Below, piece after piece: positions 1,634 through 51,672 of a stretch of 64,000 bases of DNA. Source of the stretch: Candidatus Multivorans sp. (GTDB lineage Bacteria > Acidobacteriota > Thermoanaerobaculia > Multivoradales > Multivoraceae); contig OZ245033.1 of assembly GCA_965224025.1 (NCBI GenBank), positions 418,763 through 482,762 of the forward strand, in the 5' to 3' direction. The position numbers and the translations under genes were made by a program. The notes under the pieces were generated by a model. The model did no database searches. It saw nothing but the letters and a program-made list of their open reading frames with translations, and had not been told where the DNA came from. Each line of letters opens with the position of its first letter. Within the stretch, counting starts at the first letter, position 1.

Positions 1634-3490
1634 CTAGCTCCCCTCTCGGCCGGTCACGGCGAGGTCGCCGTGCGGAATCACCAGAGTCTCGATCAGCTCA
1701 TCATCAATCGAGTAGATCTGGTACGTCACCCGCGGGTCCTCGCGCGCGGTGTCGAACGTCAGCAAACCGAAGGAGTCCTTCAGGTTGTAGCTGAACAGCG
1801 CGCCCGGCTCTACGGGGTGCGTGTGGATGTTGGTCAACTGGCCGCTCAGGAGGTCGTGGAAGGCGTAGCCGCTGTCGCGTTCGATCGCCCAGGCTTCGGA
1901 GCGGTGGCGGTCGGACGAGAGCAGGATCACGCCGGAGATGTCGCTCGCCTCGATGAAACCGAGGATCTCCTCGCGTTCTTCGGGGAAGCCCGACCAGGTG
2001 TCGCGGCTGCCGGGCTTGGCGCCGTCGGCCCAGGCTACGGGGCTTGCGATCACCTTGAAGGTGGCCTGGGAGTCGGCCAGCGAGTCGAGCAGCCAGGCCT
2101 TCTGCACCGGACCCAGCATGGTGGGCTCTTCGGCGAAGGGGTTGGTCCGGTAGGTGCGGCCGTCGAGCAGGAAGAAATCGACGTCCCCCAAGGGGAACCG
2201 AAACCAGACGCCGGGGTGGGACTCCGAAACGTAGGCCGGGTTGTTCCAGTTGCGGCGGAACAGGTCGACCATCGGTTGCTTCCACGCGGGACGGTCGACG
2301 TAGGGGCCCAGCCAGATGTCGTCGACGGCCGCGTCGTGGTCGTCCCAGATGGCGTAGACGGGGGTCGAGCTCACGAGGCGCCGGAACTCGGGGCGCGACT
2401 GGCGCTGGTAGTAGGTGTAGTCGTGGAACGGGCCGGGCGGCTCCGGCAGGTCGATGTAGACGTTGTCGCCGAGGAGGAGCAGCGCCAGCGGGGCATGGGC
2501 GGCGATCGTGTCCCACATGCGCTCATTGTCCGGCGTGTAGCCGGCGCAGCCGCCGAAGGCGACGACAAAGGTTCCGGGGGTGCCGGCGGGGGGAGAGGTG
2601 CGGAGTGTGTAAGTGGGCGACCGGGATTGCGGCGGCGGCCGGGACTGTGGCCTGTTCCGGTCGACGACGACCTGGTAGGTGTAGGTCGTGTCGGGCGAGA
2701 GGCCCTTGAGCGTTGCCGTGCCGGTGTAGTCGCGGTCGGCGGCGGTGGCGGCGGTGGCGGTGTGGCGTTCGCCGGCGGCTGTCGCGACGACTTGGAAGGG
2801 GGTCGGGACGGCGGTGCGGATCCAGATGCGAGCGCTGGTGTCGGTGACGGCGCCGAGCATGGGGCCGTGGATGATCGCGTTGTTCGGGCTCGCCGCCTGG
2901 AGCGCGAAGCCCTCGGTCGCGGCCAGGGGCGCGAGCAGCTCGCGCGGGCCGGCGAGGAAGCGGCCGAAGGGCATGCCGGCGTCGAGGGCGACGTGCATCG
3001 CCTCCTCGGCAGCGTCTATGCGATCGAGTTGGGAGAGCGCCACCGCCTTGATGAACCACGATTCGGCGTCGTCTCGGTCTTCGGCGAGCCGGGCGTCGGC
3101 AAGTTCGATAGCCCGCTCGGCGTTGCCGTCGAGGATCTCGAGGAGTTGCCGCTGCCCGCGGCGCTTGTAGTAGAGGTTCGCGGCCCGCTCCGCGAACATG
3201 CGGCGGCTCCACTCGTTCTCGGCACCGTAGTAAGGGTGCGGGGAGTCGCCTTCGTAGGCGTCGGGCGGGCCGAACTCGCCGAAGTTCTCGCCGCCGGGGT
3301 TGCCGACTTCGCGGGCGGCGAGCTCGGCGGCACGGTCCTCGGTGGGGGTGCAGGCGAGGGCTGCGGTTAGCAATGCGGCCGCCGGCCAAAGGCCGGCGAC
3401 GTTGTTTCCGCCGCCTGCGGCGGCAGCGGGCCGGAAGGCCCGCGCACCCAGAGATACGGCGTCGACCTGGCGGTGTTCTCTACTGGGCAT
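1634..3490 (-). CDS. phoD: PhoD-family alkaline phosphatase/phosphodiesterase with an N-terminal helical (TPR-like) region
   Basis: 618-aa ORF with metallophosphatase/PhoD-type motifs LLLGDNVYID, AIWDDHD, FFLLDGRTYR and LLSSDRHRSEAW, plus a lipobox LTAALAC. The first ~35 codons are encoded by a REP-A copy, so the true start is uncertain. Confidence 0.85.
   Translation of the reverse strand: MPSREHRQVDAVSLGARAFRPAAAAGGGNNVAGLWPAAALLTAALACTPTEDRAAELAAREVGNPGGENFGEFGPPDAYEGDSPHPYYGAENEWSRRMFAERAANLYYKRRGQRQLLEILDGNAERAIELADARLAEDRDDAESWFIKAVALSQLDRIDAAEEAMHVALDAGMPFGRFLAGPRELLAPLAATEGFALQAASPNNAIIHGPMLGAVTDTSARIWIRTAVPTPFQVVATAAGERHTATAATAADRDYTGTATLKGLSPDTTYTYQVVVDRNRPQSRPPPQSRSPTYTLRTSPPAGTPGTFVVAFGGCAGYTPDNERMWDTIAAHAPLALLLLGDNVYIDLPEPPGPFHDYTYYQRQSRPEFRRLVSSTPVYAIWDDHDAAVDDIWLGPYVDRPAWKQPMVDLFRRNWNNPAYVSESHPGVWFRFPLGDVDFFLLDGRTYRTNPFAEEPTMLGPVQKAWLLDSLADSQATFKVIASPVAWADGAKPGSRDTWSGFPEEREEILGFIEASDISGVILLSSDRHRSEAWAIERDSGYAFHDLLSGQLTNIHTHPVEPGALFSYNLKDSFGLLTFDTAREDPRVTYQIYSIDDELIETLVIPHGDLAVTGREGS
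3377..3486. repeat. REP-A family copy
   Basis: GCCGCCGGCCAAAGGCCGGCGAC ... GGGCCGGAAGGCCCGC GCACCCAGAGAT ... GTTCTCTACTGGG. Confidence 0.8.
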
Positions 3491-4864: not shown

Positions 4865-5079
4865 TGCAGTAGAGAACCGCATCGACACGACGGCGGTGCT
4901 CTGGGTGCGCGGGTCTTCTGACCCGCTCTCGGGCGAAGCCGCGAAGCGGCCAAGCCCGGAAGAACAGGGCCGCCGGCCGAAGGCCGGCGACGTTGCTTCT
5001 GGCCGCCTTCGGCGGCAGCGGGTCAGAAGACCCGCGCACCCAGAGATACGGTGCGGCGTGGATGAAACGCCCTGCTGCA
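4865..5079. repeat. REP-A family full-length palindromic element (~215 bp)
   Basis: The left arm is TGCAGTAGAGAAC..GCTCTGGGTGCGCGGGTCTTCTGACCCGC. The centre carries the hairpins GCCGCGAAGCGGC and GCCGGCCGAAGGCCGGC. The right arm is GCGGGTCAGAAGACCCGCGCACCCAGAGAT..CCCTGCTGCA. Confidence 0.85.
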
Positions 5080-5088
5080 AGTGGGGTC

Positions 5089-6609
5089 TCACCTTGCGTC
5101 GCCTCCGTGTTCGTCGACGAAGCGCCAATCGTGGCGGGCCTTCTCGTAGCCGGGGTTGATCGTCATTTCGCCGGCGCCGATCTGCTGGCGCCAGGCGACG
5201 AGTTGCTGGAGGAGGCTGTCGGAGAGTTCGGGTTTCTCCGCCGCGAGGTCGGCCGTTTCGCCTGGGTCGGCGTTGAGGTCGAAGAGGCTGACCGCGGGGC
5301 CGACGCCGGCGATGGAGCCTTCGAACCACTCGATCAGCTTGTGGTCGCCCTGCCGGATGGCGCCCGCCGGCATGTAGCCGAGGTGGTGGTAGTGCGGGTA
5401 GTGGAAGAAGAGCGTGTCGCGGTCCAGTGAGCCGCTTCCGTCGAGCACCGGCAGGAGGCTCAGACCGTCGATGTCGGCGGGCAGGTCGGTGACGCCGAGG
5501 ATGCCGGCGATCGTCGGGAAGAAGTCGTCCGAGGTGATCAGCTCGTCGTTGACGCTGCCGGGCGCCACCACGCCCGGCCACTTGACGGCCATCGGCACGC
5601 GGACCCCGCCTTCCCAGATCATCGCCTTGCCGCCGCGGAACGGGTCCTGCTCCTGGAGCTGCTCGAAGCCGCCGTTGTCGGAGTAGAAGATGACGATCGT
5701 GCGCTCGGTCAGGCCGTGCTCCTCGATGCGGTCGAGGATCTGCCCGAAACCGGTGTCCATCGTCTCGATCATCGCGCCCATGACCGGGTTGTTCACCGGG
5801 TCAGAGGCTTTGGGCTTCCCCTCGTACCTGGCGATCAGCTTCGGGTCCTCCAGCAGCGGACGATGGACCACGTGGTGCGAGACGTAGAGGAAGAACGGCT
5901 GCTCCCGGTTCGCGTCGAGAAACGCGAGCGACCGTTCGGTGATCTCGCGGGCGTGGTGGGCGTCGGCTAAGGGGTCGTCCTCGTACTCCGGCTTGACGGT
6001 GGTCAGGATGTCGTCGAAGCCTTGGGAGCCCGGGTCCATCGGTCGACCGGGCACGTACTCCTTGTCGACGTTCAGGTGCCACTTGCCGAAGTGGCCGGTG
6101 GCGTAGCCCTGGGACTTGAACAGCTCGGCGATGGTGACTTCCTCGAGCGGGAGTCCGGGCACTTCGGCGGGTCGGAGAAGGCGGGCGTAGGGGTAGGGGC
6201 TGCCGGGGATGTAGTCGGTGATCTGGAGGCGGGCCGGGTTCTTGCCTGTCATCAGGCTGGCCCGGGTCGGTGAACAGACGGGGTTCGCGGAGTAGGCGTT
6301 CGAGAACTGCATGCCGGCCGCGGCGACGGCGTCGATGTTCGGGGTCTCGTAGAAGGTCGTGCCGTGGTAGCCGACCTGGTTCCAGGCGAGGTCGTCGGCG
6401 AGGAAGAGAACGACGTTCCAGGGGGTTGGCGTGTCGGCTTCAGGCGCCGGGTCGGGGGCCGGGCCGCAGGCCGCCAGGAGGAGGGTCGCTGCAACTGCAG
6501 TAGAGAACCTGGCTACGCCGACGGCCGTTCTCTGGGTACGCGGACCCTCTGGTCCGCTTGCCGCCGAAGGCGGCGTCAGAATCGCCGCCGGCGAAGCCGG
6601 CGACCGCAT
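5089..6609 (-). CDS. Arylsulfatase (formylglycine-dependent sulfatase family), lipoprotein
   Basis: Shows the sulfatase signature CSPTRASLMTG, LADDLAWNQVGYHG and GKWHL, with a lipobox LLLAACG. There is no ATG/GTG/TTG directly before the signal peptide. The in-frame ATGs at 6609 and 6720 both lie inside the REP-A copy, so the 5' end is uncertain. Confidence 0.85.
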   Translation of the reverse strand: MRSPASPAAILTPPSAASGPEGPRTQRTAVGVARFSTAVAATLLLAACGPAPDPAPEADTPTPWNVVLFLADDLAWNQVGYHGTTFYETPNIDAVAAAGMQFSNAYSANPVCSPTRASLMTGKNPARLQITDYIPGSPYPYARLLRPAEVPGLPLEEVTIAELFKSQGYATGHFGKWHLNVDKEYVPGRPMDPGSQGFDDILTTVKPEYEDDPLADAHHAREITERSLAFLDANREQPFFLYVSHHVVHRPLLEDPKLIARYEGKPKASDPVNNPVMGAMIETMDTGFGQILDRIEEHGLTERTIVIFYSDNGGFEQLQEQDPFRGGKAMIWEGGVRVPMAVKWPGVVAPGSVNDELITSDDFFPTIAGILGVTDLPADIDGLSLLPVLDGSGSLDRDTLFFHYPHYHHLGYMPAGAIRQGDHKLIEWFEGSIAGVGPAVSLFDLNADPGETADLAAEKPELSDSLLQQLVAWRQQIGAGEMTINPGYEKARHDWRFVDEHGGDAR

Positions 6610-6709
6610 TTTCCGGGCTACGCCGCTCCGCGGCTTCGCCCGGGAGCGGACCAGAAGGTCCGCGCACCCAGAGAACGGGCGGTGCCGTGGGCGCGATTCT
6701 CTACGCAAC
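6495..6709. repeat. REP-A family full-length palindromic element (~215 bp)
   Basis: CTGCAGTAGAGAAC..CGTTCTCTGGGTACGCGGACCCTCTGGTCCGC .. GCCGCCGAAGGCGGC .. GCCGGCGAAGCCGGC .. GCGGACCAGAAGGTCCGCGCACCCAGAGAAC..GATTCTCTACGCAAC. Confidence 0.85.
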
Positions 6710-8357: not shown

Positions 8358-8535
8358 CCCGGGCCAGAAGACCCGGGCTACGTGCGGACCAGAAGGTCCG
8401 CGCACCCAGAGAACGGTCGTCGATGCGGCGTGACTCTCTACTGCAACTGCGTCCTCCGAAGACCCGCGGGCGAAGCCGCGAAGCGGCGAAGCCCGAACGA
8501 AACGGCCGCCGGCCGAAGGCCGGCGACCTTGTTCC
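8358..8535. repeat. REP-A family copy (rearranged module order)
   Basis: GGGCCAGAAGACCCGG .. GCGGACCAGAAGGTCCGCGCACCCAGAGAAC .. CTCTCTACTGCAAC .. GCCGCGAAGCGGC .. GCCGGCCGAAGGCCGGC. Confidence 0.8.
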
Positions 8536-11796: not shown

Positions 11797-11892
11797 CGTT
11801 CTCCCGAGTCGGCGGGGTGTGGTCGGAGTTGCCTTGGGATCGTAGCGCCTGGAGAAAGGAGCGAGGCCTGCGGCCTCGCGCAACTTCGCCCC

Positions 11893-11965
11893 GGAAGCGG
11901 ATCAGAAGGTCCGCGCACCCAGAGAACGGCCTTCCCCGGAGCGGGACTCTCTACTGCAAACCTAC
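11893..11965. repeat. REP-A family copy (half element)
   Basis: GCGGATCAGAAGGTCCGCGCACCCAGAGAAC..CTCTCTACTGCAAAC. Confidence 0.8.
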
Positions 11966-12243
11966 CGCTCGAAGTGACACCCCGACGGTTGCAGAACAGA
12001 GGCTGCTCCCATCGCGGCGTATCTCTGGGTGCGCGGACCCTCTAACCCGCTGCCGCCGAAGGCGGCCAGAAACACGCGCGAGGCGTCAGCCTCGCTCCTT
12101 GCCCAACGCTCGAAGTGACGCAACAACGGCTGCAGAAGAGAGGCGCGCTCCCATCGCGGCGTATCTCTGGGTGCGCGGACCCTCGAGTCCGCTGCCGCCG
12201 CAAGGCGGCCAGGAACACGCGCGAGGCGTCAGCCTCGCTCCTT
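11966..12243. repeat. Tandem duplication (2 x ~137 bp) of a REP-A-derived unit
   Basis: Unit 1 (~11966-12100) and unit 2 (~12107-12243) share CTCGAAGTGAC..ACGG(T/C)TGCAGAA.AGAGGC..CTCCCATCGCGGCGTATCTCTGGGTGCGCGGACCCTC..CCGCTGCCGCCG.AAGGCGGCCAG.AACACGCGCGAGGCGTCAGCCTCGCTCCTT. Confidence 0.85.
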
Positions 12244-32410: not shown

Positions 32411-32426
32411 GCTGTTGGCGTGCGCC

Positions 32427-32521
32427 GGGCGGTGGATGGTCGCGACGCGTTCGTGGCACGTTCGATGACCCGTACAGACACTAGGTACCACTGCGAGAAC
32501 CCGCGCAAGCCGGGCGCCCCC
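32427..32521 (+). repeat. ~95-bp direct repeat, left copy (DR-95)
   Basis: GGGCGGTGGATGGTCGCGACGCGTTCGTGGCACGTTCGATGACCCGTACAGACACTA is identical over 57 nt to 35884..35940. The next ~38 nt are near-identical. Confidence 0.9.
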
Positions 32522-32821: not shown

Positions 32822-33961
32822 TCAATCGGGATTCGTCGGGAACGGGTTCCCGGGAACCAGATTGTCGGGAACGAGTTCCCGACCCTGAATGGCCGACGCT
32901 GCTGCCGGTTCGAAGCAGGCCACCCAGATCACGAACTGGTCGATCTCATCAGGCACCGGCACGGCACCGAACGGATTAACCGGCGTCGCGGTGACGTAGA
33001 CGCCGATCTTGTCGTCTTTGTCCGCACTACTCGCGTGACAGCGCCCAGTCGAGCTATCAACTGCCATAATGGTGATTCCGTTGCCATTGATGTCCACGCC
33101 CGGCGTGTCAACCGGCTTATCCGGGTCTGCAACGCCGTTCATGTCCCAGGTAGCCGACAAGGTTCCGGTGCCTGTTGTCGGCAAGTGACCATCTCCCGTC
33201 ACCGAGAGATTCAGCTCAACCGTGTTCTCTCCAGTATTCCGGTGGACAACGCTGCCGTTGGCGACGTCGCCGTCGGGCCCCGTCGCCGTGATGCTGTACA
33301 TAGCGTCGAGAACGCAGTCGTTCTGAACCTTGTCTGCACAACGCCGCTTCGGTTTCATCGGGAGCAGATGGGACAGGATGCCTACGCGCCCGCTGTCCGC
33401 GTGCTTGACGAAGGTAGCTGCCGGCTCGTAGTCCTTACCCAGAACCGTGAACTCCTGGCTCTTGGCGGTCAAGATGCCTCCCGGCATGGTGGGCAGGGTA
33501 GGTTCGTTCCCGTACACGCTCAGCGGCAGCAACGAACCGACAGCCGAACTGATCTCGTCGTTGATCCAATACCAGCCACCGGGCATGATGCCTTGAATGA
33601 GGGCTGTGCCGGTTCCATCGTCACAAGCCAGATCGTCGTCACCGAAGTGGGCGCTGACCATGCCTTCGTCGTTCGGCGTCAACCTGCCGGCCTTCGCATA
33701 GCCGTCGCAGGCGACCGCTACCGTGACGACGCTCTCGTCTTCGTCCATCGTCTCGTCGTCGTCTTCGTTGGCCGCTTCAGCGACGAAACCGCCCGAAGCG
33801 TCCGTGAAGGCGGCGACGTAACACTCCTCCGCAGGGGCGCAGTTGACGTTGATGCTGACTTCGACGGCGCTGACGTCGACGGCGCTGTCTCCCACGCCGG
33901 CCTGGCCGAAGCCGACCGACGCTGCCAGCGCCATGCAAGTGAGTAGAAGAATCTTCTTCAA
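32822..33961 (-). CDS. Hypothetical secreted acidic protein
   Basis: 379-aa ORF with signal peptide MKKILLLTCMALAASVGFGQA. It is Asp/Gly/Thr-rich with several Cys, and no family was recognised. It is visibly more AT-rich than the flanks. Confidence 0.7.
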   Translation of the reverse strand: MKKILLLTCMALAASVGFGQAGVGDSAVDVSAVEVSINVNCAPAEECYVAAFTDASGGFVAEAANEDDDETMDEDESVVTVAVACDGYAKAGRLTPNDEGMVSAHFGDDDLACDDGTGTALIQGIMPGGWYWINDEISSAVGSLLPLSVYGNEPTLPTMPGGILTAKSQEFTVLGKDYEPAATFVKHADSGRVGILSHLLPMKPKRRCADKVQNDCVLDAMYSITATGPDGDVANGSVVHRNTGENTVELNLSVTGDGHLPTTGTGTLSATWDMNGVADPDKPVDTPGVDINGNGITIMAVDSSTGRCHASSADKDDKIGVYVTATPVNPFGAVPVPDEIDQFVIWVACFEPAAASAIQGRELVPDNLVPGNPFPTNPD

Positions 33962-34367: not shown

Positions 34368-35375
34368 TTGACAGCCAAGAGAGCGTTGGCCGTGGAGAAT
34401 GGGATATCGGTTTCCGACGCAGTTCGGACATCGTTGTCCGAGAACACTCGTATCGCCTATCAGTGTGGATGGAAGCGGTTTACGACCTATTGCGATGAAG
34501 TGGGGAGAGATCCAATGACCGCGACTCCGGACGACATCACGGGCTTCCTGGTCTGGATGGCCTCCGTGCCCCGCTCGCCAGGTGCGACGACCAAGAAGGG
34601 GGAGCCGCTAGCGCTCGCGACGATTCGGCTCTACATCGCGGCGATCAACCGGAAGTACCGAGAGCACGGCCGCGAGTCCCCGGCGAACGACCTAAGGGTG
34701 GCGAACGTCCTTCAAGGACTTGGACGACTCTTGTCCCCCCGCCAGCGGCAGGTGAAGGCGCTACGGGAACACGAGATTGCGCGTATCCTGGACTACTGCG
34801 ACGAGCTTGCACAGCAGGAGAAACGGCAGGTGATTGCAACTCGGGACGCTGCCGTGATCGCGGTCGGCTTCGCTGCAGCGATGCGACGGTCCGAGATCTG
34901 CAGTCTCCGGTTCGCCGACGTCGAATTTCTCGGTGATGAGGATGACTTCCGGGGAATGTATCTGCACGTCCGGGAGTCCAAGACCGACCAGTTACGCCGG
35001 GGTCAGCGGATCGCAGTTCCCGATGGTGAACTGGTTCGTCCCGTACGACGACTGCGACTGTGGTTCGCCGCCTCCGGCATTGTCCGGGGGCCGGTGTTCC
35101 AGACGATGCGGAGCAACGGGCACATACAGGGACGGGCCATGCATCCGTCCGACATCGCTCGGACGGTGAAACGCTATGTGAGCGCCATCGGCCTAGATCC
35201 CGCCCACTATTCGGGACACTCCCTACGAGCGGGATTCGTGACCAGCGCAGCCGTCCACCGTGCCCGACTCGACAAGATCATGGAGGTCACCAGACACAGC
35301 AGCGCGGGCATGGTCCTACGGTACATCCGGCAGGAGGGTGCCTTTGAGGACCACGCTGGCGCGGCGTTCCTCTAA
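34368..35375 (+). CDS. Tyrosine recombinase with Cre-like architecture
   Basis: TTG start 7 nt after AAGGAGGGG. The N-terminal core-binding region is TRIAYQCGWKRFTTYC..DDITGFLVWM. Catalytic boxes are AMRRSEICSLRFADV, YSGHSLRAGFVTSAA and TRHSSAGMVLRYIR (R..HxxR..H..Y). Confidence 0.85.
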   Translation: MTAKRALAVENGISVSDAVRTSLSENTRIAYQCGWKRFTTYCDEVGRDPMTATPDDITGFLVWMASVPRSPGATTKKGEPLALATIRLYIAAINRKYREHGRESPANDLRVANVLQGLGRLLSPRQRQVKALREHEIARILDYCDELAQQEKRQVIATRDAAVIAVGFAAAMRRSEICSLRFADVEFLGDEDDFRGMYLHVRESKTDQLRRGQRIAVPDGELVRPVRRLRLWFAASGIVRGPVFQTMRSNGHIQGRAMHPSDIARTVKRYVSAIGLDPAHYSGHSLRAGFVTSAAVHRARLDKIMEVTRHSSAGMVLRYIRQEGAFEDHAGAAFL

Positions 35376-35538: not shown

Positions 35539-35585
35539 TGGAATACAGTACTGAAGACCGCCTCGCTGAGCCGGCCCACCGTCAT
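35526..35585 (-). pseudogene. Truncated toxin gene downstream of phd (19 codons left)
   Basis: The ATG overlaps the phd stop (ATGA) and gives MTVGRLSEAVFSTVFQRRT*. The position and coupling are typical of a YoeB/Txe- or RelE-type partner, but the family cannot be assigned from 19 residues. Confidence 0.4.
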
Positions 35586-35866
35586 TCTTCGGTGAGGCCG
35601 AACCGCTCACGGAGCTCGTCAACGTCCATCGCTATCCCTTCCCCAGCTTCGACCTGGGCGATCGCCTTCCGCAGCCTCTCGGCATTCTTCGGAGAGCGAA
35701 GCAGATAGTCCGTCTCCATCCACGAACTCAGATCACTCGCCGCGATCAGAGCGACGGGTTCCTTCCCGCGCCGCCGGATCAACACCGGCTCGTGCGTGTC
35801 CGTCACCTGGTCCATGAGAGTGGCGAGCTGCTCGCGTGCGCCGGTGTAGGTGGTTTCCCTGATCAT
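35582..35866 (-). CDS. Phd/YefM-family antitoxin
   Basis: ATG 35866 gives MIRETTYTGAREQLATLMDQVTDTHEPVLIRRRGKEPVALIAASDLSSWMETDYLLRSPKNAERLRKAI. Confidence 0.85.
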   Translation of the reverse strand: MIRETTYTGAREQLATLMDQVTDTHEPVLIRRRGKEPVALIAASDLSSWMETDYLLRSPKNAERLRKAIAQVEAGEGIAMDVDELRERFGLTEE

Positions 35867-35883
35867 GGCTTCACTCCCTGGTC

Positions 35884-35979
35884 GGGCGGTGGATGGTCGC
35901 GACGCGTTCGTGGCACGTTCGATGACCCGTACAGACACTATGTACCACTGCGAGAACCCCCGCAAGCCGGGGTGCCCGC
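35884..35979 (+). repeat. ~95-bp direct repeat, right copy (DR-95)
   Basis: See 32427..32521. Same orientation, 3,457 bp apart. Confidence 0.9.
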
Positions 35980-36012
35980 GTGCAATCCGTGCGCCCGATG
36001 ACGGGCGCACGG
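35975..36012. repeat. REP-B family copy (partial)
   Basis: The reverse complement reads GAACCACTCCGTGCGCCCGTCATCGGGCGCACGGATTGCACGCGGG, matching 43048..43095. Confidence 0.75.
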
Positions 36013-36448
36013 AGTGGTTCATGCCGGTGTCGATCACCAGGCGGCAGGAGATGAACATCTCCATGACCAGCCGGCCGTACAGGTCGTAGGCGTTCTCGTA
36101 GACGCCCATCTCCTTGCCGAGGTTAGCGGCGTACTCGGCCCAACCCTCCGTGAAGGCCCCGTAGCCGATCGTCTCGCGCCGGAACCGGGGCAGGTCCTCG
36201 CGCTCGTTCGCCAGCGCGAACTGGAAGTGATGCCCGGGATCAGCTCGTGTAGATCAGCCCCTGGGCCGAGAACAGGGACCGGTTCTCGAGGTCGGAGAGT
36301 TGTAGCGGTACTCGCCGCGCGGGTTCGCCGCGGCGTACTCGTCGCCGACCGACGCGATGAGTTTCGCATCGGCGCCGGTGCTCGACCCTCCGCAGGCCGA
36401 CAGCAGCGGAACAACGACTACGACTACACAGAACGATGCGGTCTTCAT
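36010..36448 (-). pseudogene. DUF885-family lipoprotein gene with an internal deletion, a frameshift and 3' truncation
   Basis: The ATG overlaps the cusA stop (ATGA) and gives MKTASFCVVVVVVPLLSACGG..GDEYAAANPRGEY. In another frame come ELIPGHHFQFALANE..GYGAFTEGWAEYAANLGKEMGVYENAYDLYGRLVMEMFISCRLVIDTGMNH. The sequence is then cut by REP-B/DR-95. Confidence 0.65.
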
Positions 36449-42987: not shown

Positions 42988-45354
42988 TTGCACATGCCGA
43001 AACCAAACCTGGGAACCCGTGTGGCGCGACCTCGCGCCACACGCGAACCACTCCGTGCGCCCGTCATCGGGCGCACGGATGGCACGCGGGCATCCTGCCC
43101 GCATCCGGCCCAACGGGCCGGTCTGCTTGGCGTTGTCCCTTCATACCTGCGGACGCCCCTGCGTCTGTTCTGCGCCGCTCTGGCCTGCTCGATCTTCGCT
43201 GCCTGCGGCGGCGAGTATCCGCCGCCGCCCTCGACGGAGCAGATCCCCTTCACCGAGACGATCCACGGGGTCGAGTTCCAGGATCCCTACCGCTGGCTGG
43301 AGGACCAGGACAGCCCGGCAACCCGCGCCTTCATCGACCGGCAGAACGAGTACGCGGAGCAGATCCTGGGCCAGCCGCCGGAACGCGATTGGGCTCGACG
43401 GCGGCTACGCGAACTCATGGGAACGCCGGCCATCGGCTCGCCCAACAAGGCGGGCGACTACGAGCTCTTCACCCTGCGCCGGGCCGGCGAGGAACTGGCC
43501 TCGATCGTTCGCCGTGAGGCGCCGGAGGATGCGCCCGAGGGTGCACCCGGGCCGATCGACCCGGCGCGCGACTACGAGGTCGTGGTCGACCCGGCGGATC
43601 TCGGCGGCGACTACACGCACCTCGACGTCGTGTCCGTTTCGCCCGACGGGCGGCTCCTGCTCTACAACGTGCGAGTCGGCGGCGAGGACGAGACCACGGC
43701 CCGCTTGCGCGACCTCGAGCAGAACGTCGACCTCGACTTCGAGCTGCCCCGGGCGTTGAACGACCAGGCGTTCTTCGCGAAGGACGGCAGCGGCATCTAC
43801 TACACGGTCCGCGACCGCAGCGAGGGATCGCGCGTTCGTTTCCATACCTTCGGCACCGACCGGGCGGACGATGCTCTCGTGTTCGGCGAGGGAATCGGGC
43901 CGCGGAGCTTCGTCCGCGCCGAGCAGCTCGACGACGCGTTGCTGCTCGTCGGCGTTCAACACGGATGGGCCCGTAGCGACCTCCATCTCGTGGAGGTGGG
44001 AACCTGGAAGGCGACGCCGCTCGTCACCGACACGGAGGCGCGCTTCAACACCCACACCGCCGACGGCAGGCTGTTCGTGCGCACGAACCTGGACGCGCCG
44101 CTGAACCGGCTGATGGAGGTCGACCTCGACCGGCCGGCGGTCGCGAGCCCGGGTGGCGCGTTGTCGCGCCACACGCGAACCAGTCCGAGCGCCCGTCATC
44201 GGGCGCTCGGATGGAACTGGCGCGAGGTCGTGCCCGAAGCCGACGACGTGCTGCAAGGCGTCGCCGTCATCGACGGCAAGCTCTACCTGACCTACCTGCA
44301 CCATGTGGCGAGCCGCATCCGGGTGTTCGAGTTCGACGGCACGCCGGCCGGCGAGGTCGAAGTGCCCGAACACCACAGCGCCAGCATTCGCGCGGCTGGG
44401 GAGGGCAAGGCTCTTCTCTCGCTGGTCTCCTTCCTGCAGCCGCCCGTGACCTGGCTGCTCGATCTGGAGGCGGGCACGCGCGAAATCTTCCGCGAGCCCC
44501 AAGCGCTCTTTTCGGCCGACGGCTACACCGTCCAGCAGGTGCGCTACACCTCGAAGGACGGCACGTCCGCGCCGATGTACGTCGTCCACCGCGAGGACTT
44601 CGAATCCGACGGAAGCGCTCCCGCCCTGCTCAACGGCTATGGCGGCTTCAACGTCTCCCTCACCCCGCGTTTCAATCCGCTGGCGGCCCTGTGGATCGAG
44701 GCCGGCGGCGTGTACGCCGTCGCCACGCTCCGGGGCGGCAGCGAGTACGGCGAGGAGTGGCACCAGGGCGGGATGCTCCACAACAAGCAGAACGTCTTCG
44801 ACGACTTCATCTCGGCCGGCGAATGGCTGATCGCCGAGGGCTACAGCGACCCCGAGCGCCTGGCGATCCACGGCGCGAGCAACGGCGGACTGCTCGTCGG
44901 CGCCTCCTTGACTCAACGCCCCGATCTCTACCGCGCGGTGCTCTGCGGCTTCCCCGAACTCGACCTGATCCGCTTCTACACCTTCACCGACGCGAACAAC
45001 ATGCCCGCCCTGCTCGAGTACGGCGACGGAGAGATTCCCGACCAGTTCGAGTCCCTGCGCGGCTTCTCGCCCTATCAGGCGGTCAAGGACGGCGTCGCCT
45101 ACCCCGCCGTCATGCTGACCCAGGGCGACCGCGACACCCGGGTGCCGCCGCTCCAGGCGCGCAAGATGGCGGCCCGCCTCCAGGCGGCGACGTCTTCGGG
45201 CCTGCCGGTGATCCTGCGCTATCACCCGTACGCCGGGCACGCCGCGAGTCGGGGTCTGCCGACGTCGGAGCGGATCGAGTTCGTGGCGGCGGAGGCTGCG
45301 TTTCTGTTCACGCAGACGGGGTTGGGGGCGGCAGGGACGGCATCGGGTGACTGA
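42988..45354 (+). CDS. Prolyl oligopeptidase (S9A) family serine peptidase, lipoprotein
   Basis: [24 protein letters not shown], nucleophile elbow [21 protein letters not shown], and YAGHA. The first ~50 codons of the track ORF are REP-B sequence. A lipobox IFAACGG lies at ~43190. The nearest in-frame start-like codon is CTG 43147. Confidence 0.85.
43021..43110. repeat. REP-B family copy (full: two hairpins plus GCGGGCATCCTGCCCGC module)
   Basis: GTGGCGCGACCTCGCGCCAC ACGCGAACCACT CCGTGCGCCCGTCATCGGGCGCACGG ATGGCAC GCGGGCATCCTGCCCGC ATCCGG. Confidence 0.8.
44153..44214. repeat. REP-B copy inserted in frame inside the peptidase CDS
   Basis: GTGGCGCGTTGTCGCGCCACACGCGAACCAGTCCGAGCGCCCGTCATCGGGCGCTCGGATGG is translated as [21 protein letters not shown]. 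Confidence 0.8.
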
Positions 45355-45836: not shown

Positions 45837-45940
45837 CCGAAGAGAAGGAGTTGACCAGGCTCGGCGCGATAAGAGAGCTCATCGAACTCGAGCAACGCTG
45901 CGGACTCGTCTAGCTTGCCGCAGTAGCGTCGCTGCTTCGG

Positions 45941-46000
45941 CACGCGCCGCGCCACCTGTGAACCAGTCCGTGCGCCCGCCATCGGGCGCACGGATGGCAG
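45941..46000. repeat. REP-B family copy
   Basis: GCGCCGCGCCACCTGTGAACCAGTCCGTGCGCCCGCCATCGGGCGCACGGATGGCAGG. Confidence 0.75.
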
Positions 46001-48611: not shown

Positions 48612-48725
48612 GGCGCAGTATGGTCGCCGCTTCGCGGCGCGTCTTTCTGGCCGCCTTCGGCGGCAGCGGGCCAGAAGGCCCGCGCACCCAGAGACACACC
48701 GTGCCGCTCCAGCCTGCGCTACACG
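48612..48725. repeat. REP-A family copy
   Basis: GCAGTATGGTCGCCGCTTCGCGGCG...GCCGCCTTCGGCGGC AGC GGGCCAGAAGGCCCGC GCACCCAGAGA. Confidence 0.8.
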
Positions 48726-51396: not shown

Positions 51397-51464
51397 TGGG
51401 ATTCGGAGACAGCCGACGTCGCTGCGATGGAGGTTTCTGCCGTACCCGGCATCGTCTCACTGCG

Positions 51465-51672
51465 GGCGATGCGGGCCAGAAGGCCCGCGCACCCAGAGAT
51501 AAGGCGGTGCTGCGAGCAAAGCTCTGTTCTGCAAACGTCACCGCGTCACTGCGAGCGGCAAGAGTGCAGTAGAGACTCTCGCCGCGGCGAAGGCGTCGCT
51601 CTGGGTGCGCGGGCCTTCTGGCCCGCTGCCGCCGCAAGGCGGCCAAGTGACGCGCCGGCCTTTGGCCGGCAC
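51465..51672. repeat. REP-A family compound copy
   Basis: GCGGGCCAGAAGGCCCGC GCACCCAGAGAT ... TGCAGTAGAGAC ... GCTCTGGGTGCGC GGGCCTTCTGGCCC GCTGCCGCCGCAAGGCGGC ... GCCGGCCTTTGGCCGGC. Confidence 0.8.

Follow-up and report, generated by a model that had tools for sequence, protein, structure and literature searches.

The Rickettsia palindromic elements (RPEs; Ogata et al. 2000, 2002) are, according to a review (PMC10969869), AT-rich palindromic repeats of about 100-150 bp, restricted to Rickettsia and its relatives, that occur as in-frame insertions in unrelated housekeeping genes and also in non-coding DNA, with nearly half of the copies being intragenic in some families. The same review mentions small mobile sequences of enterobacteria, ERIC among them, that form in-frame fusions within genes (Delihas 2007, cited in PMC10969869). 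Beyond Rickettsia, in-frame intragenic REPs or MITEs have been described in Opitutus terrae, Thauera, Xanthomonas, Stenotrophomonas and other bacteria (Di Nocera 2013, PMC3733652; review PMC10969869). The GTAG/CGTC REPs are mostly intergenic stem-loops, but some lie wholly within known genes, where REP dimers typically encode 20-30 amino acids; the authors suggested that REP inserts located in loops are neutral and that copies at the N-termini of ORFs are often mis-annotated (PMC3733652). Given that intragenic REPs have already been catalogued in several non-Rickettsia genomes (PMC3733652), the sequence-only reading of the locus described here overstated the novelty of such behaviour outside Rickettsia. 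Two further systems are relevant: REPIN-RAYT, in which the repeats are high-copy, palindromic, non-autonomous, vertically persistent and well conserved and are thought to be moved by a HUH tyrosine transposase present in single copy (Bertels and Rainey 2011, PMC3116915; bioRxiv 10.1101/2021.07.10.451892), and the IS200/IS605 family, which is transposed by the Y1 enzyme TnpA via single-stranded DNA (PMC6006769).

The repeat analysed here, REP-B, was detected in a window of 64,000 nucleotides (the whole stretch of DNA that was analysed) from Candidatus Multivorans (Acidobacteriota, Thermoanaerobaculia), a taxon for which no mention was found in the accessible literature. REP-B is a discrete unit of 68-69 nt with about 75% GC that contains two unlike hairpins with stems of 11 and 15 bp. 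Similarly to the RPEs, it occurs within unrelated housekeeping genes, in frame and at fold-compatible sites (a prolyl oligopeptidase gene, hereinafter POP, and the glutamate synthase small-subunit gene, GltD), as well as in non-coding DNA, encodes a peptide compatible with the fold, and is present in some and absent from other related species; however, because its size, base composition and host phylum are different, REP-B is treated as analogous to the RPEs and not as a member of that group, and the two unlike hairpins are a further difference. A relationship between the two at the sequence level would not be expected. ERIC resembles REP-B as a small palindromic mobile sequence found in frame inside genes but is about 127 bp long, has terminal inverted repeats, and belongs to another sequence family and host phylum.

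With the GTAG/CGTC REPs, REP-B shares short stem-loops that lie mostly between genes and sometimes within them, loop positions and peptides of comparable length (20-30 aa), but it lacks a terminal GTAG or CGTC (the only CGTC in the consensus is found at a stem-loop junction), carries GAACC 5' of each hairpin, has longer stems, and consists of different hairpins in direct order instead of a head-to-head dimer. Like the REPINs, REP-B is high-copy, palindromic, non-autonomous, vertically persistent and well conserved; however, in a REPIN, one REP is repeated in inverted orientation to make a long hairpin, whereas the hairpins of REP-B have different stems (GGGTGGCGCG vs GTCCGTGCGCCCG) and follow one another head-to-tail, with GAACC in front of each. 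The ends of REP-B, ACCCGGGTGG... and ...CGGATGGC, are not mutually inverted and there is no target duplication in GltD, so that the element is not a classical MITE either. REP-B shares with the IS200/IS605 type the absence of TIRs and target duplication, a subterminal hairpin at each end and exact empty sites; IS200/IS605 elements insert beside a short motif, and their seamless excision would give empty sites such as those in POP. Nevertheless, the IS200/IS605 target is usually a defined motif of 4-5 nt, compared to only A (mostly GA^A) for REP-B, and no tnpA or tnpB partner of REP-B was identified in the sequence sampled.

Table 1. Coordinates of the POP gene and the REP-B copies in the window.
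Feature	Position	Strand	Details
Prolyl oligopeptidase (S9A) lipoprotein gene	42988..45354	+	ORF from TTG 42988; true start uncertain
REP-B insertion in POP, 69 nt, 23 codons	44149..44217	+	codon alignment: 69-column gap, 3 empty-site and 7 filled orthologs
Hairpin 1, intragenic copy	44150..44175	+	CGGGTGGCGCG / loop TTGT / CGCGCCACACG; computed fold
Hairpin 2, intragenic copy	44180..44214	+	CCAGTCCGAGCGCCCG / loop TCAT / CGGGCGCTCGGATGG; computed fold
Second full REP-B, 69 nt, nested in REP-C	43015..43083	+	junction CCTGGGA^ACGCGGGCATCCTGCCCGCATCC
Third REP-B copy	45941..45998	+	3' of POP, between convergent genes
Partial REP-B, GAACC and hairpin 2 only	35983..36026	-	abuts truncated DUF885 gene fragment

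An in-frame REP-B insertion in the POP gene

The POP ORF matches the Pfam profiles Peptidase_S9_N (PF02897, E 5e-59) and Peptidase_S9 (PF00326, E 1e-49) and the PDB entry 2bkl (E 1e-113), and shows the complete S9A architecture, with a seven-bladed propeller at the N-terminus (28 propeller strands in an AlphaFold model with a mean pLDDT of 90), an alpha/beta-hydrolase domain and a Ser-Asp-His triad. The triad residues S562 (within GASNGG), D647 and H682 occupy invariant columns among 91 aligned sequences, in agreement with the earlier observation that the catalytic motifs are intact. The lipobox Cys codon was located near 43195 by alignment of the N-termini. GC3 is 0.90 and 0.87 on either side of the insert. 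The gene is still under purifying selection with the insert in place: dN/dS (0.17-0.22 overall) is 0.18-0.21 between orthologs that contain the insert (filled), which is similar to the values of 0.165-0.18 between filled orthologs and those without it (empty).

The reading frame continues through the insert without a stop, which adds 23 codons to POP. The sequence-only reading recognized this copy at 44153, inside the coding sequence and in frame, and estimated its length at 62 nt; the exact extent is 69 nt, with boundaries that are ambiguous by 1-3 nt given the AA/AAC on both flanks. The 23-aa segment is present in 9 of 70 close homologs and absent from the others; about 59 of the 70 have a gap of 23 aa in the protein alignment, and at the DNA level the indel between filled and empty orthologs is exactly 69 nt. 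Orthologs with 85-89% identity from genomes that contain REP-B elsewhere (OZ253534.1 and OZ244152.1) have a clean empty site, and the empty alleles L001, L003 and L006 are of exactly the ancestral length. Thus, a repeat element has indeed been inserted in frame into POP; the insert is lineage-specific and within the predicted range of about 20-23 aa, and the empty orthologs contain no homologous segment of equal length. On the gene tree, filled and empty alleles are interleaved: the empty L003 is the sister of the filled L004 (89% bootstrap), and the empty L006 is nested in a clade of filled alleles (100% bootstrap). Deletion via the 7-nt microhomology TGGCGCG (44154, 44218) was considered and rejected since, with a spacing of 64 nt, it would shift the frame and does not recreate the empty allele.

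As judged from the alignment with 2bkl, which breaks exactly at the insert, and from the AlphaFold model, the inserted segment is the loop between strands 3 and 4 of propeller blade 5. It was previously placed at the transition between the propeller and the catalytic domain, but blades 6 and 7 (about 100 residues) separate the two. Residues 318-337, between strands 305-309 and 343-346, have pLDDT below 50, i.e., the insert is modelled as a low-confidence loop; the sequence-only reading had asked whether it forms a surface loop. The 23-residue loop, rich in Arg, His, Ser and Thr, is probably disordered.

The REP-B family and indications of mobility

The window contains 4 REP-B copies (Table 1). 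A repeat finder aligned the segments 43013-43085, 44145-44217 and 45928-46000 at 88% and 73% identity, and the 38-nt core 44177-44214 recurs at 43045-43082 and 45960-45997 with 3 mismatches each, where shuffled sequences lead to an expectation of 0. The proposed recurrence of the element at 43021 and 45941 therefore holds, but not the identity of both copies as two-hairpin sequences: at 45941, only hairpin 2 has stayed intact, hairpin 1 being degenerate (z = -2.1 over the whole 78 nt), whereas the 78-nt segments of the upstream copy (z = -8.0) and the intragenic copy (z = -5.6) both fold into two GC-rich hairpins. Likewise, of the two copies taken to be intergenic, the one at 45941 is, whereas the one at 43021 lies between the TTG-CAC start region conserved in orthologs, upstream of this copy, and the h-region of the signal peptide, with no in-frame ATG, GTG or TTG between it and the lipobox. 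The candidate start codons of POP are TTG 42988, ATG 42994 and a CTG near 43126. It may belong to the 5' UTR or may be translated as 22 residues, possibly within the signal peptide coding sequence. At this upstream site, REP-C is empty of REP-B in L120, and L122 has neither repeat. The DUF885 fragment next to the partial copy corresponds to positions 398-443 of 532 of the Pfam profile, and the match stops at the repeat.

A genome scan identified at least 113 stretches with REP-B, most of them in MAGs of Candidatus Multivorans or Thermoanaerobaculia; the isolate names of several of these MAGs (names only) suggest host-associated samples. Alignment of some 89 oriented copies, drawn from about 20 genomes, gives the consensus ACCCGGGTGGCGCG-ATC-CGCGCCACCCGYGAACCAGTCCGTGCGCCCG-TCAT-CGGGCGCACGGATGGC, flanked by GA and A; each hairpin is preceded by GAACC, and hairpin 2 is followed by ATGGCA. 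In accord with a REP-type element, the copies are numerous, dispersed stem-loops with compensatory changes in the stems: 97.9% of the stem cells are paired, 6 pairs are changed on both sides (4 of these in the helix of hairpin 1), and 0 of 500 shuffles match this. Because the search pattern fixed most of the hairpin-2 stem, this signal comes mostly from hairpin 1 and the pair 52-71 (UA 32, AU 6, CG 2, UG 9 in the family alignment), and in hairpin 2 of the intragenic copy, A...T replaces the usual T...A of the family. No Rfam family matches the region (the sole entry, Actino-ugpB at 25 bits, is below the threshold), and no terminator-like T-run follows the hairpins. With Y = C, the consensus is free of stops in five of six frames, and the length preserves the frame in about 40% of the copies, a form of pre-adaptation to coding sequence. 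Only 2 intragenic sites were found among the approximately 89 copies sampled.

The second of these sites is in GltD of L012 and P0121, which contains the in-frame segment NP(R/G)GADPRH(T/A)RTSPCARQRAHGW, with the element in the same frame as in POP; the insert is missing in P0122-P0159. Comparison of filled and empty alleles gives unambiguous junctions, CCCA^GCGAC, without target duplication. REP-B is also nested in the loops of REP-A hairpins (e.g., L102 and L069) and in REP-C, of which empty versions are known (L120 and the second unit in L006). The four resolved targets, CCAGA^AGG, TGGGA^ACG, GCCA^ACT and CCCA^GCG, have only A^ in common; the motif, an A that most often stands in GA^A, is weak. 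A tblastn search with sequences of an E. coli RAYT and the IS608 TnpA as queries yielded no match better than E of about 2 in 1.04 Mb, which amounts to about 1-2% per genome, and the weak IS608 matches in L097 and L044 were rejected as transposase candidates since they fall inside a long ORF that is not transposase-like by sequence. In L011, an inverted pair of REP-B flanks an ORF that, by its sequence, resembles sulfatases and not a transposase. When metagenomes were scanned for the variant of hairpin 1 with the TTGT loop, only two unrelated low-GC hairpins came up, a result with no bearing on the existence of a master copy. A profile of the doubled 48-aa REP-B peptide found nothing at E <= 1 in a set of 5.8 billion proteins, and the REP-B profile had 4 matches, all apparently spurious or read-through ORFs over intergenic copies, among 1.84 billion representatives clustered at 50%, a clustering that hides internal inserts.

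Conservation of the insert and its possible explanations

Among the seven filled orthologs, which come from different species (dS 0.3-0.4), 3 of the 69 columns of the insert are variable, compared to 26% gene-wide (P about 3e-6), and 1 of the 23 third-codon positions, compared to 47% gene-wide (P about 9e-6). No other 69-nt window of POP is as conserved as the insert: its 3 variable sites compare with a mean (and expectation) of about 16, a minimum of 6 elsewhere, 10 in the window of the catalytic serine, and 19 and 17 in the adjoining windows. The loops and the linker are invariant as well, and the insert is near-identical between species with 11-14% divergence at coding positions. Hairpin 1 has a single substitution, from A to C in L121, which restores pairing at a G.A mismatch. 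The copy in L005 is only 77% identical and retains the stem through a two-sided change (GCCCG/CGGGC to GCCGG/CCGGC); it is treated as diverged, and its origin from a separate subfamily was rejected, because no other GCGCCGG...CCGGCGC copy of the REP was found in 1.04 Mb. The upstream copies of REP-B at orthologous sites likewise vary far less than the sequence around them. In the GltD copy, 2 of 69 nt differ, compared to 7% gene-wide, so that its evolution is not clearly slower. A purely neutral passenger would be expected to drift; the POP insert does not.

The in-frame copy in POP is likely to be explained by REP-B being a mobile element, one copy of which was inserted in POP, tolerated, and translated as a loop, with the peptide as a passenger. 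The filled and empty alleles, the discrete ends, the nesting in other repeats, the maintained pairing, the loop position, the second in-frame case in GltD and the precedents in other bacteria favour this reading; the lack of drift, the weak target motif and the lack of a transposase match in the 1.04 Mb sampled speak against it. REP-B would be a small non-autonomous element of the Candidatus Multivorans/Thermoanaerobaculia lineage, and a 69-nt copy with a stop-free frame and a length divisible by three would have entered POP, where the enzyme could tolerate it because it landed in a peripheral loop, that between strands 3 and 4 of blade 5. From the reading frame, POP is predicted to be translated now with an extra loop of 23 residues, and this peptide would be a passenger and not an adaptation. 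Mobilization might proceed via single-stranded DNA, with an enzyme of the HUH/Y1 class (IS200/IS605 or RAYT type) as the transposase. Insertion by these transposases causes no target duplication, and their precise excision would explain the exact-length empty alleles interleaved with filled ones.

The conservation of the insert might also mean that the intragenic hairpins are kept by selection at the nucleic acid level, with the peptide as a by-product, a possibility that is compatible with origin by transposition but appears doubtful on balance. As RNA or DNA structures or protein-binding sites, the hairpins might influence mRNA stability, pausing of the ribosome, folding of the propeller during translation, or supercoiling. 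The low variability with sharp edges, the repaired mismatch in L121, the two-sided change in L005 and the persistence of the upstream copies beyond that of their flanks all fit such selection; however, the unpaired loop and the linker are frozen too, so that pairing alone is insufficient, the insert is dispensable in at least five close lineages, the L005 copy has diverged substantially, a slowdown in GltD is not clear, and there is neither a T-run terminator nor an Rfam match. A broader version of this idea, which we consider unlikely, is that the REP-B copies belong to a long-lived, host-integrated system, in which a HUH transposase that has been domesticated, or some other protein that binds hairpins, reads both sequence and structure, and the intragenic copy is a functional nucleic-acid site, doubly constrained by codons and hairpin, and not merely tolerated junk. 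If true, this would account for near-invariant orthologous copies that can vanish seamlessly.

The near-identity of the insert across divergent species and the interleaving of filled and empty alleles could, instead, indicate that the insert is young, i.e., that a filled allele recently spread by short-tract recombination or that a master copy repeatedly hit a preferred target. This, too, seems improbable: the flanks diverge up to the junctions, with no filled-specific haplotype, the TTGT loop is common to all seven POP copies and was not seen in any of the roughly 85 others sampled, which favours a single origin over repeated insertion, and the inferred target of only 1-3 nt is too weak for repeated insertion at one site. 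Finally, long spurious ORFs arise in high-GC DNA and the start codon of POP is uncertain, so that POP could in principle be a pseudogene or a mis-called ORF in which the repeat is effectively non-coding. This reading, already disfavoured, is extremely unlikely in view of the full-length Pfam and PDB matches in a single frame on both sides of the insert, the GC3 values, the invariant triad, dN/dS of about 0.2 in filled lineages, and the confident AlphaFold model.

In-frame insertion of REP-type elements is already known from other bacteria, and what is unusual here is the strong conservation of the copy. The POP and GltD cases extend the range of repeat-decorated proteins to Acidobacteriota (Thermoanaerobaculia), and the clean filled/empty pairs at four kinds of target define the ends of REP-B and show insertion without duplication. 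For genome annotation, it is relevant that REP-B can mimic N-terminal extensions, provide start codons and split domain matches. The frozen insert amid drifting synonymous flanks provides a test of whether REP hairpins are held by selection or by a homogenising mechanism.

The REP-B copy in the prolyl oligopeptidase gene

The REP-B sequence within the prolyl oligopeptidase (POP) gene is a real repeat and not a chance match, in agreement with the sequence-only reading: its 38-nt core recurs twice in the window with 3 mismatches each, with no copies expected by chance, and its inner palindrome appears again on the opposite strand. In-register alignment of the three copies gives 88 % and 73 % identity. 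Folding yields two GC-rich hairpins per full copy (z-scores of -8.0 and -5.6 for the upstream and intragenic copies, respectively); in the downstream copy, the first hairpin is gone (z = -2.1).

In the POP product, Peptidase_S9_N is matched at residues 51-472 of 757 (E 5e-59), together with Peptidase_S9 (E 1e-49); the product also resembles solved prolyl endopeptidases (best, 2bkl, E 1e-113). The phmmer alignment to 2bkl is interrupted precisely at the insert, so that query residues 318 and 341 both correspond to chain residue 309. A segment at this site is present in 9 of the 70 aligned homologs (P0001-P0008 and, in a diverged version, P0012); the "empty" P0009-P0011 and P0013 are 88-89 % identical to the query in a full-length alignment, no more distant than the "filled" homologs (P0015, also empty and counted among the near homologs, was left out of this alignment). 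In nucleotide alignments, filled and empty sites differ by exactly 69 nt: in the empty locus L003, GTCGGCAAC is followed directly by TGGCGCGAG, and the filled site reads GCCA[ACCCGGGTGG...GGATGGA]ACTGG. Thus, these close empty-site orthologs carry no homologous segment of the same length, and the insertion is upheld. Two empty-site genomes, OZ253534.1 (5,438,760 bp) and OZ244152.1 (4,979,003 bp), contain REP-B at other loci; the absence is therefore specific to the POP site. The gene appears to be alive, as judged from low dN/dS (0.18-0.21 for filled vs filled and 0.165-0.18 for filled vs empty) and from the catalytic triad, which had been taken to be intact: Ser562, Asp647 and His682 are invariant among the aligned homologs.

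An AlphaFold model (91 input sequences, residues numbered from window position 43195; mean pLDDT 90.1, pTM 0.91) supports the general idea of a surface loop: the insert, residues 318-337, is the sole internal stretch with pLDDT below 50 and is flanked by predicted strands 305-309 and 343-346. The proposed location at the propeller-to-catalytic transition is wrong because, in the model, the insert is the loop between strands 3 and 4 of blade 5 (from the count of 28 propeller strands), and blades 6 and 7 intervene until about residue 433, with the hydrolase domain starting near 444; the Pfam domain limits are consistent with this layout.

The repeat at 43021 is likewise genuine but its description as intergenic is doubtful, given that the conserved POP start region lies upstream of it. 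In the ortholog L122, the signal peptide starts with TTG-CCT-GTG-CCG-CAG-CCT-CTG-CCT-CCG-ATC-CTG immediately 5' of the hydrophobic core. The window, L002 and L123 share a homologous start region, TTG-CAC-..., which a repeat of the REP-C family with a nested REP-B separates from the hydrophobic core and the lipobox. An in-frame TTG is present 3' of the repeats in L002; in the window (42988-43200), CTG takes its place, and from the REP-C/REP-B composite to the lipobox there is no ATG, GTG or TTG. Thus, either the upstream copy belongs to the 5' UTR and a non-canonical CTG start is used, or the copy is translated. If translated, REP-B would contribute 22 residues, in another frame, to a long n-region, and the repeats together would add about 50 residues to it.

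Conservation and distribution of intragenic inserts

Conservation was compared in seven filled orthologs (the window, L002, L004 and L120-L123). Their POP coding sequences are 86-92 % identical (third positions 75-84 %; dS 0.31-0.41), and their inserts are identical at 66-69 of 69 positions. Variation affects 3 of the 69 insert columns vs 26 % gene-wide (binomial P about 3e-6) and 1 of the 23 third positions vs 47 % (P about 9e-6); every other 69-nt window of the gene contains at least 6 variable sites (19 and 17 in the neighbours of the insert, 10 in the catalytic-serine window). The loops and linker are likewise frozen, and the sole change within hairpin 1 restores pairing at a mismatch. This nucleotide-level conservation is striking. 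The POP ortholog P0012 belongs to a different, more distant clade; its insert, also 69 nt long and at the corresponding site (L005:4030-4100), is 77 % identical, roughly as diverged as third positions of the gene (70-76 % identity). Most REP-B sequence features are lost from this insert, and the stem GCGCCGG/CCGGCGC is retained by change on both sides. Orthologous upstream REP-B copies are also far better conserved than their flanks. From this stem and these copies, the constraint seems to belong to the REP-B family rather than to the POP gene.

In a bootstrapped tree, filled and empty POP alleles are interleaved: the empty L003 is sister to the filled L004 (89 % bootstrap), and the empty L006 is nested in a 100 % clade of filled alleles. 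A TTGT loop common to all seven POP copies is found in no other sampled REP-B copy, indicating a single origin. In the flanks, no haplotype is tied to the filled alleles. On the simplest interpretation, the insertion is old, was seamlessly lost several times and is under nucleotide-level constraint wherever it persists; recent lateral spread of the insert is the main alternative.

The POP insertion is not a one-off. All sampled REP-B copies were screened for an ORF running through the element and flanked on either side by GC3 of the coding type; this returned the POP site and one more, L012:5729, in a gene whose product is a small subunit of glutamate synthase, GltD type (PDB 7mfm, E 6e-170). 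The insert there, NPRGADPRHTRTSPCARQRAHGW, uses the element frame that is also read in POP and lies in a variable linker immediately before the GGGDTG nucleotide-binding strand; it is shared by P0121 and missing from P0122-P0159. Comparison of filled loci (L126/L012) with the empty locus of a sister genome (L127) reveals unambiguous junctions, CCCA^GCGAC, without target duplication. In L012, a 15-nt deletion directly follows the insert.

REP-B as an element

The family was collected by a pattern scan of species-representative genomes; among the matches listed, MAGs with the labels Candidatus Multivorans, Thermoanaerobaculia and Holophagales account for most. The consensus of about 89 oriented copies is GA|ACCCGGGTGGCGCG-ATC-CGCGCCACCCGYGAACCAGTCCGTGCGCCCG-TCAT-CGGGCGCACGGATGGC|A. 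Pairing is kept in 97.9 % of cells, with six pairs changed on both sides, a value reached by 0 of 500 shuffles, with most of the hairpin-2 stem preset by the search pattern. At pair 52-71 of hairpin 2, T...G is common (9) and G...T absent, an asymmetry that would fit folding of one strand or may reflect a single subfamily. With Y = C, five of the six consensus frames are open, and the length preserves the frame in about 40 % of copies; therefore, occasional in-frame survivors are expected.

By its sequence contexts, REP-B behaves as a discrete insertable unit: in addition to the clean GltD junctions, it is often nested in the AGAA loop of the hairpin of REP-A, another repeat family, in related genomes (GCGGGCCAGA^AGGCCCGC, e.g., L102 and L069), and in REP-C (CCTGGGA^ACGCGGGCATCCTGCCCGC), which occurs without it in L120 and L006. 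REP-B lacks terminal inverted repeats, a GTAG/CGTC tag and the inverted REP doublet structure. Elements moved by HUH/Y1 transposases likewise have hairpins close to both ends, cause no duplication and leave exact empty sites, and by analogy we infer that an enzyme of the IS200/IS605 or RAYT type may move REP-B; no transposase was found within 1.04 Mb of sampled sequence.

Two variants were observed. L112:4360-4540 contains two tandem REP-B-like units with hairpin 1 swapped for an unrelated segment, CCCGTTTTGGGAGGAGACGAGCAAGACGCG, which suggests that hairpin 2 can join other left halves. At L097:4314-4400 (ortholog L044:6761), a variant fills the gap between two putative acyl-CoA dehydrogenase genes; its beginning overlaps the stop codon of the upstream gene, and its terminal GGATGG contains the apparent true ATG start of the gene downstream.

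In the window, REP-A (GCGGGCCAGAAGGCCCGCGCACCCAGAGA...) is more abundant than REP-B, with at least 11 copies. The 89-nt direct repeats (98 % identical) enclose about 3.4 kb with a GC content of 58-64 % vs about 69 %, which looks like an integrated element. The DUF885 fragment, which spans positions 398-443 of the 532 in the Pfam profile, stops abruptly at a half REP-B copy beside an 89-nt repeat; the remainder of the gene was not found past the other repeat.

Coordinates of the features (window positions unless a locus is named)
Feature	Position	Strand	Remark
POP gene	42988-45354	+	
REP-B in POP	44153-44214		
REP-B 38-nt cores	44177-44214, 43045-43082, 45960-45997		
REP-B, in-register alignment	43013-43085, 44145-44217, 45928-46000		
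REP-B inner palindrome	35991-36008	opposite	
GltD gene with REP-B insert	L012:4859-6421 (OZ242222.1)		insert 69 nt, 23 aa
REP-A	1533-1612, 3405-3484, 4997-5049, 6625-6704, 8378-8442, 11876-11955, 48645-48724, 51450-51529	+	
REP-A	4865-4943, 6496-6574, 12005-12209, 51565-51643	-	
89-nt direct repeats	32426-32514, 35883-35971		
Unannotated secreted protein	32822-33961	-	between 89-nt repeats
Phage-type integrase	34368-35375		between 89-nt repeats
Phd/YefM antitoxin gene	35582-35866	-	just inside upper 89-nt repeat
DUF885 fragment	36020-36157	-	

Relation to known intragenic repeats

In-frame palindromic repeats inside genes are established; a recent review treats the RPEs of Rickettsia as well as intragenic ERIC (PMC10969869). 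The expectation that coding-region palindromes would be notable beyond Rickettsia goes too far: a survey of GTAG/CGTC REPs catalogued copies inside known genes of Opitutus terrae, Thauera, Xanthomonas, Stenotrophomonas and others, with intragenic REP dimers encoding 20-30 aa, and its authors considered inserts in loops probably neutral and N-terminal cases often annotation artefacts (PMC3733652). Functionally, REP-B fits in with these repeats, but its sequence family is another one and its phylum lies outside that survey; a literature search on the genus Candidatus Multivorans found nothing. The POP insertion is real and well characterised, in-frame intragenic palindromic repeats being already known; what it adds is the clean definition of the element ends, the second intragenic case, and the nucleotide conservation combined with seamless presence and absence.
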